Part shown: positions 7,823 through 11,230 of the stretch, piece by piece
Numbering within the stretch: the stretch's first letter is position 1
How the letters are laid out: the number at the start of each line of letters is the position of its first letter
IMG/VR virus record: IMGVR_UViG_3300035562_000082
Coordinates: 32,001-96,000 of that record
Length of the DNA: 64,000 nucleotides
Strand: one strand, 5' to 3'
DNA from: a virus
Taxonomy: Duplodnaviria; Caudoviricetes
Position numbers and translations under genes: made by a program
The notes under the pieces: generated by a model
The model's database searches: none
What the model was told of the DNA's origin: nothing
The model's input: only the letters and a program-made list of their open reading frames with translations

Positions 7823-8208
7823 TGATGATCAAGACCACGGGTGCGGAGTTTAAGCGGTTTTACACGGACAAGAGCTATTGGCCGGAGGGTACGTGGCACG
7901 ATGATGAGGAGATTTTGGTCGATGGCAAAGAATTTCCGCACGAGAATGACCTGATGACTGTGGCGGATGCCGCGATAATGCGTGTGGCTGCTGGGTGTGT
8001 GTACGAAGCCCAGGGTTATGAGCCGGATAATTGGCCGTCGTTGGAGGTGTATTTTCGACGGTGGTTGCGTGAACAATCGGTGGTGGTTGTGGCGGTGGAG
8101 GTTCCGAAAGACCGACTTCAACAGTTGAAGGACGGTCTCAAGGAGTTCGGCGGCAAGGTCATTGGCAATTGATTGCAAGTCCACGGTAGTACTACTGAAG
8201 GAGTCACC

Positions 8209-9264
8209 ATGGTAACGAAGAACGGCAAGGACCATCCGTTGGACGAGGGCGCGGAATCGGTCAAGCGCTTGACCAAGGACCTCAAGTTGGCGGCCAAGAA
8301 ACTGACGGACACCGAGGCCCGGTTTTTGGTCGATGGCTACTACATCATGCAGGAGAACCGCAAACGCAGCGACAACCAAGTGCGGGCGCTGGGGGAGAAC
8401 GCGGAGCCGAATTCGGTGCTGGCGTGGATGGCCGAACAGGCGGACGTGATGGAGAGCCAACTTAAACGCGCGCTCGATGCGTACACCGATGCTCATCCGA
8501 TGGGCAACTGGATGCGGCAGGTCGTGGGCATTGGGCCGGTGATCAGCGCCGGTCTGCTGGCGCACATCAGCATGGAGCCCTGGAAGTGCATGCGGCAGAA
8601 TCTGAAGAACAAGGCGTGTAAGCCCGGTGAGCCCTGTACCCCCCAATGTGGGCGGGTACCGACCACCACCACGGGCAAGATCTGGCGGTTTGCCGGGTTG
8701 GATCCGACTTCGGTTTGGGAGAAGGGCCAGAAGCGCCCGTGGAACGCCACGCTCAAGACCCTGTGCTGGAAGGCCGGGCAGTCGTTCATGAAGTTCAGCA
8801 ACCGCGAAGACTGTTTCTACGGCCAGAAGTACAAGGAGCGCAAGATCTACGAGTGGGAGCGCAATCTGAAGGGCGGGCAGGCGGTGCGCGCCACGTCGTT
8901 GCTGGAGAAGATCGGGAAGACCACTGAGGCGTATCCCTGGTTGGTTGGTTGCTATCACCCGGATGCCGTACGTGCATTGCGGACTGTCGCCGATGGGTCG
9001 TTGACGCCCCCGATGTTGGCGGCCATCAAGCTCAAGCCCGGTGAGGGCGTGCCGATGCTTCCACCCGGGCACATCGATGCCATGGCCCGTCGATGGGCGG
9101 TGAAGCTGTTTCTCGCGCACCTGCATGATGCGTGGTTCGAAGGTCACTTCGGGAAGAAGCCGCCGCTGCCGTATCCCATTGCGTTCCTGGGTCATGCGGA
9201 TGTGATCAAGTCGCCGATCGCCGCCCCGAAGTCCTGGGCGGAGGAGCGGCCGGCGGCGGAGTAA
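8209..9264 (+). CDS. TIGR-associated Tas protein, TasA-like (coiled coil plus IS110/Nop RNA-binding domain, no RuvC/HNH)
   Basis: IS110 C-terminal/Nop motifs VVGIGPVISAGLLA, IWRFAGLDP, KRPWNATLKTLCW, HIDAMARRWAVKLFLAHL; no N-terminal DEDD/RuvC domain; stop codon overlaps the first repeat of a 36-nt dual-repeat array; RBS AAGGAG before ATG 8209. Confidence 0.85.
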   Translation: MVTKNGKDHPLDEGAESVKRLTKDLKLAAKKLTDTEARFLVDGYYIMQENRKRSDNQVRALGENAEPNSVLAWMAEQADVMESQLKRALDAYTDAHPMGNWMRQVVGIGPVISAGLLAHISMEPWKCMRQNLKNKACKPGEPCTPQCGRVPTTTTGKIWRFAGLDPTSVWEKGQKRPWNATLKTLCWKAGQSFMKFSNREDCFYGQKYKERKIYEWERNLKGGQAVRATSLLEKIGKTTEAYPWLVGCYHPDAVRALRTVADGSLTPPMLAAIKLKPGEGVPMLPPGHIDAMARRWAVKLFLAHLHDAWFEGHFGKKPPLPYPIAFLGHADVIKSPIAAPKSWAEERPAAE

Positions 9265-11016
9265 GTCGTCCAATAAGAGAGCGTCAAACCCCCGGAACGA
9301 GTCATTATGTAAGTGAGCACCACACGACTAGAATGAATCGCGCAGAGAGAGTACCTTGTGGTTCGAATGAATCAAGCATTGCTAGAGCACCTAGTTCAGG
9401 GAATGAGCTACGAAACAAGAGCGTACCGTTCTTCACGAGTGAGTCATCCTAGTTGAGAGCACCATCAACTTTGAACGAGTCAAAACGTAGGAGCGTGCCA
9501 GATGTATGGAACGAACCGGGCAAGACGAGTGGACCATCATGATCTAGTGCGTCACCAGACTTGAGAGAACCGAACAACCTGAATGAGTCATTGTCACTGA
9601 GAGTATCAGGCTTCCGGAACGAGTCCTTCAAGGCAGAGGGTGCCAATAGTTGTGAATGAACCGTCGATACGGAGAGCACCACGCATGGGCAGTGCATCAA
9701 TGAGATTGAGAGCGCCTAAAGCCCGTGAATGAACCATGCTTCCCGAGAGCATCAAATGAAAGGAGTGAGTCGTTATTGCCGAGAACACCAAGCAAAATGA
9801 ATGAATCACGCGACACGGAGAGCGCCAAGAAGTATGAATGAGTTCTGTCGAAGCGAGAGCGCCACCAAGAAGGAACGAGTCATCGAACCTGAGAGCACCA
9901 GAAGCTCGAAATGAGTCAATTCAATGAAGGGCACCACGTTCTCAGAATGAACTGGCTTGTAGGAGAGTCCCGGGCACGCGGAGTGAATCAGTTGCAATGA
10001 GCGGGACCGTGCAATTGGAATGAACCTAGCTTAGTGAGTGCGCCGTTTGTAAGGAGTGTGCGAAGCCAGAAGAACCGTGAGGATCAAAAAAGCGGAGCGA
10101 GTCGTATTGAGTGCGTGCACCGTTTGTCAAGAACGAACCGCGATAAGTGATAGAACCTCGATTCGGGAAGTGCATCAAGTTAATAGAGAGTACCAGCTTA
10201 ATTGAGTGAGCCAGTTGGACCGAGAGTACCGTGGAAGACGAGCGAGTCTCATGGAGGGAGAGTACCCCTGTTTATGAACGAGTCGGGGAAGACAGAGTGT
10301 ACCGATGGAAGTGAATGAGTCATTATGTGAGCGAGCGCCTGTTGTTGAACGAGTCGTTGTAAATGAGAGCACCAATTGCGCTGTATGTGGCTAGATCCGA
10401 TACAGCGAGTGCACCAATGGAAGTGAGTGAGTCACGATAAGAGACAGTGCCTGTTAGTTGGAGTGCGTCGGTTATCGAGCGGGGGCCTGAATGGTCGAGC
10501 GAGTCACGAAAGTGTGAGGGCCGCTGCAACGGAACGAACCTAAATGACGGAGAGCCACCTGTCTGTTGGAGTGGGTCAATGTAGGTGAGAGTACCACGAT
10601 GTTGAGAACGAGTCTTTGGGAAATGCGAGCACCACGTATTCAGAGTGGAATCTTGCACCTGAAGTGCACCGAAGTTGTTGAGCGAGATCAAGACTTACGA
10701 TAGTACCAAAACCGTCGAGTGAGGCAGTGGCAGGTGTGGGAACCGGAGATACTGATCGAGTCCGTGATGTTGGATAGACCCACTGAACAGAGTGAATCCA
10801 GTTTGGTGAGAGCGCCAACTACGTCGAGTGCGTCATTTCAGTAGAGAGTGCCTTTTCGATAGAACGAGCTATAGATTCTGCGAGAACCATGTATCAAGAA
10901 CGGGTCATCTATCGGGATTAGTATCGCGGAACTTGAACGAACTACAATGGTCGTGAGTACCTGAACGATGTGAGTGAGTCATTGTTAATGCGAGTGCCTA
11001 GGGTCGAGAACGTTGT
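9259..11016 (+). ncRNA. TIGR array (tandem interspaced guide RNAs), about 48 units of about 36 nt
   Basis: Alternating 9-nt repeats GA(A/G)YGARTC and GAGAG(C/T)ACC separated by variable ~9-nt spacers, e.g. gaacgagtc ATTATGTAA gtgagcacc ACACGACTA gaatgaatc; no credible ORF; directly follows the Nop-domain gene. Confidence 0.9.
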
Positions 11017-11230
11017 AACCCCGGATTGCAATTGATTGCCAGCGTTGGAAGGAGGGTTCGACCGCCGGTATACTGCTGATGGCGTGGTTTATAGCGGGAG
11101 ATTCAGATGCAATGGGCCATTGGCGTAGCGGGTGTTGTCTGTTTGTTGGGGGCTTTGGGTTGGGCGGTGTGGACGTGGAAGACCAAGCACTCCAAGATCA
11201 CGATCAACGGCGAGAACAAGGGTTGAGCCG

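Follow-up and report, generated by a model that had tools for sequence, protein, structure and literature searches.

A TIGR-TasA cassette in a phage genome lies between two copies of a dispersed motif that one of its own guides spells

Introduction

TIGR-TasA systems (Faure et al. 2025, PMC12045711; Xu et al. 2026, bioRxiv 10.64898/2026.09.09.750476) combine a nuclease-less Nop protein with a dual-repeat array of 36-nt units, in which two short spacers read opposite strands of a single target. TasA proteins act as RNA-guided transcription repressors in reporter assays, the natural targets of the systems are mostly unknown, and the papers report no self-directed guide (PMC12045711; bioRxiv 10.64898/2026.09.09.750476). 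According to the published TIGR-Tas papers, 9-nt spacers yield too many false matches, hence natural targets are essentially unknown. Here, we describe a TIGR-TasA cassette within a 64,000-nt stretch of phage DNA (the window), comprising bases 32001–96000 of the 117,594-bp IMG/VR virus record IMGVR_UViG_3300035562_000082, which CheckV rates as complete. The cassette has the protein type, unit length and two-strand reading of the described systems, but it differs in its very long array (about 48 units) and in a guide that spells a motif dispersed through the phage lineage, copies of which flank the cassette itself. Coordinates refer to the window unless given as genome positions.

CRISPR-Cas loci are known to repress themselves, through the long-form tracrRNA at the cas9 promoter and through Cas-regulating CreR RNAs. 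In those loci, as in the one described here, a guide of the locus is partly complementary to DNA immediately ahead of its own effector gene, which in CRISPR-Cas results in negative feedback. The phage site differs in having no recognisable promoter and in carrying a word that has 25 further copies in the genome, TasA is nuclease-less, so partial pairing is not needed against self-cutting, and 57 related loci do not share the feature. The stoperators of cluster A mycobacteriophages (the L5 gp71 sites), bound copies of which are thought to halt transcription, are a further parallel: at least two dozen copies of a 12–14-bp word lie in short gaps and within genes, in a genome with one-way gene order. 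Stoperators are read by a protein repressor, whereas the only candidate reader identified for the phage motif is an RNA guide, and the phage motif is near-palindromic and is also used by a relative without that guide.

In T4-type phages, promoter-early stem-loop (PeSL) cassettes consist of accessory units flanked by repeats, and module shuffling has been proposed for the hyperplastic regions that hold them. The phage locus likewise has repeated, promoter-associated elements around small accessory units in a hypervariable early region, but its elements measure only 12–16 bp, five or six of the 26 are tied to a promoter, and an exchange event was not observed. The IS110/IS621 bridge-RNA recombinases (PDB IDs: 8wt6 and 8wt9) resemble the TasA system in the fold of the RNA-binding part and in reading DNA through a guide of two parts; they differ in that the TasA cassette has neither recombinase domains nor a split target, and has a many-guide array in place of one bridge RNA.

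Results

Two copies of a dispersed motif flank the cassette

We found the same 12-bp core, GCAATTGATTGC, on both sides of the cassette, and we think it probable that this bracketing is a consequence of a lineage-wide boundary motif, the cassette being one accessory unit between consecutive copies. The features of the cassette and its edges are:

8164–8179: left motif copy, with the core GCAATTGATTGC at 8165–8176 and the 16-bp predicted target GGCAATTGATTGCAAG
8198–8203, + strand: ribosome-binding site of tasA, AAGGAG
8209–9264, + strand: tasA, encoding a 351-aa Nop-domain TIGR-associated protein without a nuclease domain
9259–11016, + strand: dual-repeat TIGR array, about 48 units of 36 nt, beginning on the tasA stop codon
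9981–10026, + strand: motif-spelling tigRNA unit, with edge repeats at 9981–9989 and 10018–10026
11027–11042: right motif copy, with the core GCAATTGATTGC at 11028–11039 and the 16-bp sequence TGCAATTGATTGCCAG

The left core ends 32 nt before the tasA ATG (8209) and contains the TGA stop (8170–8172) of the upstream 116-aa open reading frame (ORF), while the right core lies 11 nt past the degenerate edge repeat that terminates the array. This agrees with a preliminary description of the DNA, in which motif copies had been placed about 30 nt before tas and about 10 nt past the last repeat. Neither the left nor the right site contains a stable hairpin or terminator (z-scores +0.9 and +1.1), the terminator scan returned no intrinsic terminator on the + strand after the array, and the two flanks have no further sequence identity past the motif.

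The motif is enriched at gene junctions and unit starts

GCAAT-YR-ATTGC occurs in 26 copies in the 117.6-kb phage, with TG (16 copies), CA (7) or CG (3) at its centre and no other dinucleotide. No other 12-mer of the genome is as over-represented (23 exact copies, compared with 0 for the reversed control word). Fifteen of the 26 copies are non-coding or on a stop codon, against a non-coding share of only 14% for the whole genome, and four more are within 55 nt of a gene end; counted by junction, the motif is present at 15 of 171 gene junctions, and at 14 of the 81 that have a gap of at least 25 nt. In this phage the word therefore has the properties of a dispersed boundary motif, namely many copies, over-representation and enrichment at junctions.

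The pattern is clearest in the early region (−6567 to 17530 in window numbering), where, on our unit map, each unit of small genes opens with a motif copy. Near the cassette, consecutive copies lie 2976, 2964, 3108 and 2863 bp apart, and tasA with its array takes up 98% of one inter-motif interval. Five motif copies are located 8–10 nt ahead of promoters of the form TTGACAAA-N16/17. The features adjoining the cassette are:

5057–5110, + strand: motif GCAATCGATTGC (5057–5068), 10 nt, then TTGACAAA-N16-TATGCT
7822–8172, + strand: upstream gene, 116 aa, without a Pfam match, the last of the upstream early operon
11045–11074, + strand: promoter-like TTGGAA-N18-TATACT of the next early unit, 5 nt past the right copy

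The promoter at about 5079 heads the operon 5136–8172 and is the nearest recognisable one upstream of tasA, as no convincing −35/−10 pair (sigma-70-like) was present between 5079 and 8209. Given that this stretch is free of promoter-like sites, tasA and its array are probably transcribed across the left copy. On the other side of the array, the next ORF starts at 11107.

Several smaller regularities of the motif were recorded. At window 2093, 8165 and 82568 (genome 34093, 40165 and 114568) the motif supplies the TGA stop of the upstream gene. Among the copies within genes, 9 of 11 are translated as Q-[L/S]-I-A, which avoids the frame in which TGA is a stop. The central dinucleotide is CA in four of the six copies of genome 1–32000 and TG in 15 of the 20 copies of 32001–117594, a shift that occurs although all genes have the same direction. 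At 46436–47174, two copies 727 bp apart surround ORFs that have a low GC content at third codon positions (GC3, 0.34–0.47) and were not called by the gene scorer.

The motif is abundant in a collinear phage that lacks tas

By scanning viral contigs for a 'motif plus TTGACA' pattern, we retrieved G001 (IMGVR_UViG_3300037419_001192), a complete genome of 102,690 bp with direct terminal repeats. It is collinear with the phage, sharing more than 50 genes at 30–64% amino-acid identity. The motif is again the top 12-mer, with 61 copies (about one per 1.7 kb) and the consensus TGGCAAT-YR-ATTGCCA; 33 copies are deep within genes, and many lie 5–30 nt ahead of a ribosome-binding site and ATG, like the left copy of the cassette. 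Some positions are orthologous, with copies directly before a protease-like gene (genome 79163; G001 21251) and just past a capsid-like gene (genome 82414; G001 24120). A second relative, G002 (IMGVR_UViG_3300018067_000117), is a 45-kb fragment of a related phage with four standard motif copies; its top 12-mer is the variant GCAATCAAGTGC (five copies), and in G002 GCAATCAAGTGC may be a diverged half-site.

Neither a tas homologue nor a TIGR array was detected in G001, which is complete, or in the G002 fragment. Since G001 has 61 copies without tas or an array, the motif is, by this comparison of genomes, older than the cassette in the present genome and works without TIGR-Tas.

The surroundings of the cassette are poorly represented elsewhere. 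A blastn search with 6000–13000 against the phage collection gave no match, and homologues of the genes flanking the cassette were absent from G001 and G002. Searches of viral contigs with Tas, a 243-aa ORF and the 116-aa ORF returned nothing, or one relative at 31% identity, and the 243-aa ORF, searched against metagenomes, hit a 1.5-kb contig (48% identity) in which downstream synteny is absent. Sequence searches of phage and viral contigs found neither a cassette-less allele nor a second phage with the same cassette.

One guide of the array spells the motif

The array comprises 96 alternating repeats at 18-nt spacing (9259–10998) and a degenerate terminal edge repeat (11008–11016/7). The edge repeat reads GAAYGAGTC(A) and the loop repeat GAGAGCACC(A), giving the two alternating short repeats and two 8–9-nt spacers per unit of about 36 nt that characterise TIGR arrays. 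We parsed the array with our own script, which can misplace a spacer by 1 nt in indel-bearing units, with the result that some guides are missed; the same parser detects such arrays in most of 80 related loci. The register is lost at 10054–10095 and 10383–10407, where steps of 23 and 24 nt and degenerate repeats occur, and about 15 more steps measure 16, 17, 19 or 20 nt.

The published TIGR geometry has 8-nt 3' overhangs and the C-5 rule (PMC12045711), with the first paired guide nucleotide located at the unwinding junction (bioRxiv 10.64898/2026.08.11.744272). On its own strand, each spacer pairs with the 3' half, and the target is therefore spacer B followed by the reverse complement of spacer A. 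For unit 9981, in which spacer A (9990–9998) is AGTTGCAAT and spacer B (10009–10017) is GTGCAATTG, this gives GTGCAATTGATTGCAACT. Judging from the repeats of relatives, which have CCA or TCA at their end, the base counted first in the 'spacer' belongs to box C, and the spacers are then 8 nt. The loop repeat of unit 9981 is irregular (10 nt, 9999–10008), and its spacers A and B can base-pair with one another (−9.1 kcal/mol).

Guide 9981 holds the complete 12-bp dispersed word, for which the analytic chance is ~4e-5 (48 guides x 2 strands x 7 registers x 4^-12). When the guides were read in the wrong geometry, the motif word was never spelled. The 48 guides were tested against their own genome, G001 and G002; guide 9981 was the sole guide above the controls, and none of the remaining guides exceeded them. 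By word identity, and not by mismatch count, the correspondence between this guide and the motif is non-random at the level of sequence. Mismatch counts had also been tried as evidence and were rejected: a score of 15/18 is not above chance, being reached somewhere in the genome by five true-phase and three control-phase guides, and exact junction-spanning matches of 12–13 nt are common in controls.

At the left site, guide 9981 matches 14 of 16 positions with the outermost two unpaired, or 15 of 18 over 8163–8180, and the 15/18 match of the preliminary description is correct for spacer B joined to the reverse complement of spacer A. The right site also scores 14/16, and one of its mismatches falls at position 4 of spacer A. 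In TasR, the seed covers the spacer position mismatched at the right site, and mismatches at the outermost positions, the only ones at the left site, are tolerated best (PMC12045711). Pairing of all 14 central bp, both seed regions included, is found genome-wide only at the left site and at 40382 on the − strand, the latter inside the gene for a 1,508-aa head protein. Imperfect matches are more widespread: two more sites share the 15/18 score of the left site, ten further sites reach 14/16, and all 26 genomic copies match the guide at 12/16 or better.

The 351-aa protein is of the TasA type

The 351-aa protein has no Pfam match, and hence no Pfam nuclease. With phmmer it matches the TasR structure 9mty (E 3.6e-5) and, weakly, TasH. 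Its homologues (n = 5433) measure 258–377 aa, some of them carrying PF02371, and the shortest (258–275 aa) still span about 90–91% of the protein. An AlphaFold model built with 30 homologues (predicted local distance difference test score, pLDDT, 85; predicted template modelling score, pTM, 0.84) is all-helical from residue 12, the only strands belonging to a short Cys-rich insert at residues 125–154. The best Foldseek matches of the model are the TasH and TasR cryo-electron microscopy structures (E 1.6e-5 to 5.5e-5, probability 1.0), followed by the IS621 and ISCro4 recombinases (E 0.02–0.05), which share the RNA-binding part only. A coiled coil and a Nop RNA-binding domain, the hallmarks of a TIGR-Tas protein, are thus supported by phmmer, AlphaFold and Foldseek together, and neither the model nor Foldseek revealed a DEDD/RuvC, Tnp or serine-recombinase domain. 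As there is neither room nor fold for a nuclease or recombinase domain, the modelled product of 8209–9264 is of the TasA type, without the nuclease that distinguishes TasR and TasH.

The insert has the pattern C-x10-C-x5-C-x3-C (window 8584–8650, residues 126–147), sits between the coiled coil and the Nop domain, and has cysteines that recur at equivalent places in the TasA family consensus; in the model, it may be a small zinc ribbon. The GC content of tasA is 62% with a GC3 of 0.83, the GC3 of its neighbours is 0.65–0.72, and the GC content is 55.7% for the window as a whole and 50% for the array.

Flank-matching guides are not a general property of related loci

For comparison, we assembled 57 non-redundant related tasA loci (58 with the phage locus). 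In the 57 loci, guides matched the 150 nt ahead of tas or of the cassette no more often than wrong-phase or wrong-geometry controls did, with 1–7 loci reaching 13/16 per flank window, the same as for the controls, and multi-copy self-matching guides within ±10 kb of these loci were not above controls. The phage locus is the only one of the 58 with guide matches of 14/16 on both sides of the cassette. Of 54 related cassettes with sufficient flanking sequence, three carry a direct repeat of 10 nt or longer at their edges, these being the phage locus itself, a ribosome-binding-site word and a T-run.

Discussion

In the explanation that we favour, quasi-palindromes of 12–16 bp, (T/G)GCAAT-YR-ATTGC(C), would mark gene and operon junctions throughout the phage group, and copies of the motif would partition the lineage-specific early region into units. 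The left copy would be the unit-start mark of the cassette, in the common order of stop codon, motif, ribosome-binding site and ATG, and the right copy would be the unit-start mark of the next operon, belonging with its promoter. Four observations weigh against this explanation. The other unit-start copies of the early region are followed by a promoter, and the left copy is not. If junctions are independent, a given unit would bear the motif at both of its junctions with a probability of about 0.01–0.03, which is rare for a random gene, yet expected if the motif is a unit-boundary mark; some specific link with the cassette is therefore possible. The gene map was made with a home-made ORF scorer and not with a standard gene caller. 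Finally, the motif word resembles PurR/LacI-family boxes, and as a LacI-type operator it was rejected, since none of the three phages gave a PF00356 match above the cut-off in a search confined to the LacI type.

On such a boundary motif, TasA loaded with the motif-spelling tigRNA may bind, as the guide spelling the motif suggests. TasA bound at the left copy would then be a roadblock, giving negative feedback on tasA and the array. Consistent with this, the guide pairs over 14 contiguous central bp with DNA that lies on the route of transcription into the effector gene; the 57 related tasA loci did not show the same arrangement. Such RNA-guided feedback at the left copy is offered as a tentative prediction from the sequence, and we regard as possible, and somewhat doubtful, the broader proposal that TasA uses a dedicated tigRNA to read a pre-existing boundary word, with the left copy as an RNA-guided roadblock on tasA and the array. 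If the roadblock were real, TIGR-Tas would have its first described natural target and its first described autoregulatory circuit, and the case would represent an RNA-guided protein plugged into an existing operator network. For the target word itself a confident identification is possible, since this multi-copy 12-bp motif is spelled only in the correct two-strand geometry, and it is a new dispersed boundary motif common to at least two large soil phages.

The preliminary description had gone further, reading the two copies as the cassette's own target sites and proposing autoregulation together with insulation. A circuit dedicated to the cassette, in which TasA and its tigRNA would act on both copies to block entry from the left and either read-through or the next promoter on the right, seems to us rather unlikely. 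It would account for the 14/16 match at both flanks, unique among the 58 loci, and for mismatches at the left site that are restricted to the best-tolerated outermost positions; targeted TasA represses transcription, and with no intrinsic terminator after the array another stop would help. The matches are nevertheless far from exclusive to the flanks, given the ten other sites at 14/16 and the 26 copies that all reach at least 12/16, and flank-matching guides are not in excess across the 57 related loci. The motif is also kept at orthologous sites of a tas-less phage, and unit 9981 has an irregular loop repeat and mutually pairing spacers. Insulation in particular did not hold up, as the right copy belongs to the next promoter (11045–11074) and is mismatched with the guide at spacer A position 4, within the seed defined for TasR. 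Nor is the bracketing specific to the cassette, with 26 copies in the phage and 61 in the collinear G001.

Two further explanations concern how the cassette arrived. It could have been gained or lost by recombination between motif copies of co-infecting relatives, which we consider quite improbable. Exchange of this kind would fit the absence of tas and the array from G001 and G002, the near lack of homologues of the cassette region in both, and a cassette that takes up nearly all (98%) of the interval between two motif copies; at least two phage genomes have the motif in identical form, providing 12–16 bp of common homology, and the GC3 of tasA stands above that of its neighbours. That value is, however, inside the range of the genome's other genes, 12–16 bp is very short for homologous recombination, the flanks share nothing outside the motif, and neither a cassette-less allele nor a second carrier was found. 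Mobilisation resembling that of IS110, which the preliminary description had raised, would make the motif a target or element end and the tigRNA a bridge RNA. Insertion by IS110/IS621 leaves a split target with a 2-nt core, whereas the phage has an intact 12-bp motif on each side. The Tas Nop domain is structurally related to the IS110/IS621 recombinases (PMC12045711; Foldseek E 0.02–0.05), and a guide within the element matches both flanks, but TasA is all-helical without a DEDD/RuvC or Tnp domain, its 258–275-aa homologues span about 90% of it, a phage without such an element has 61 copies of the motif, and flanking repeats of at least 10 nt occur in only three of 54 cassettes, two of which have a ribosome-binding-site word or a T-run in place of the motif. 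With the catalytic domains absent, whole motif copies on both sides and related cassettes without flanking repeats, we hold a transposition scar to be highly improbable. Since the word occurs 61 times in G001, neither cassette ends nor such a scar should be seen in the flanking copies.

Other features of the genome

By our ORF scorer, all but two of the predicted genes of the whole genome are on the + strand. About 15 intergenic promoter-like sites have an extended −35, TTGACA(A/G)A, 16–17 nt before the −10, and the motif precedes only five of them. Members of this family are located at window 809, 2114, 3115, 5079, 24230, 27928 and 30182, and at genome 6142, 8439, 15429, 25454, 26382, 29798, 31139 and 115493. 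Another 12-mer, TCAAGGAGTGAC (reverse complement GTCACTCCTTGA), has nine occurrences genome-wide and resembles a shared ribosome-binding-site context.

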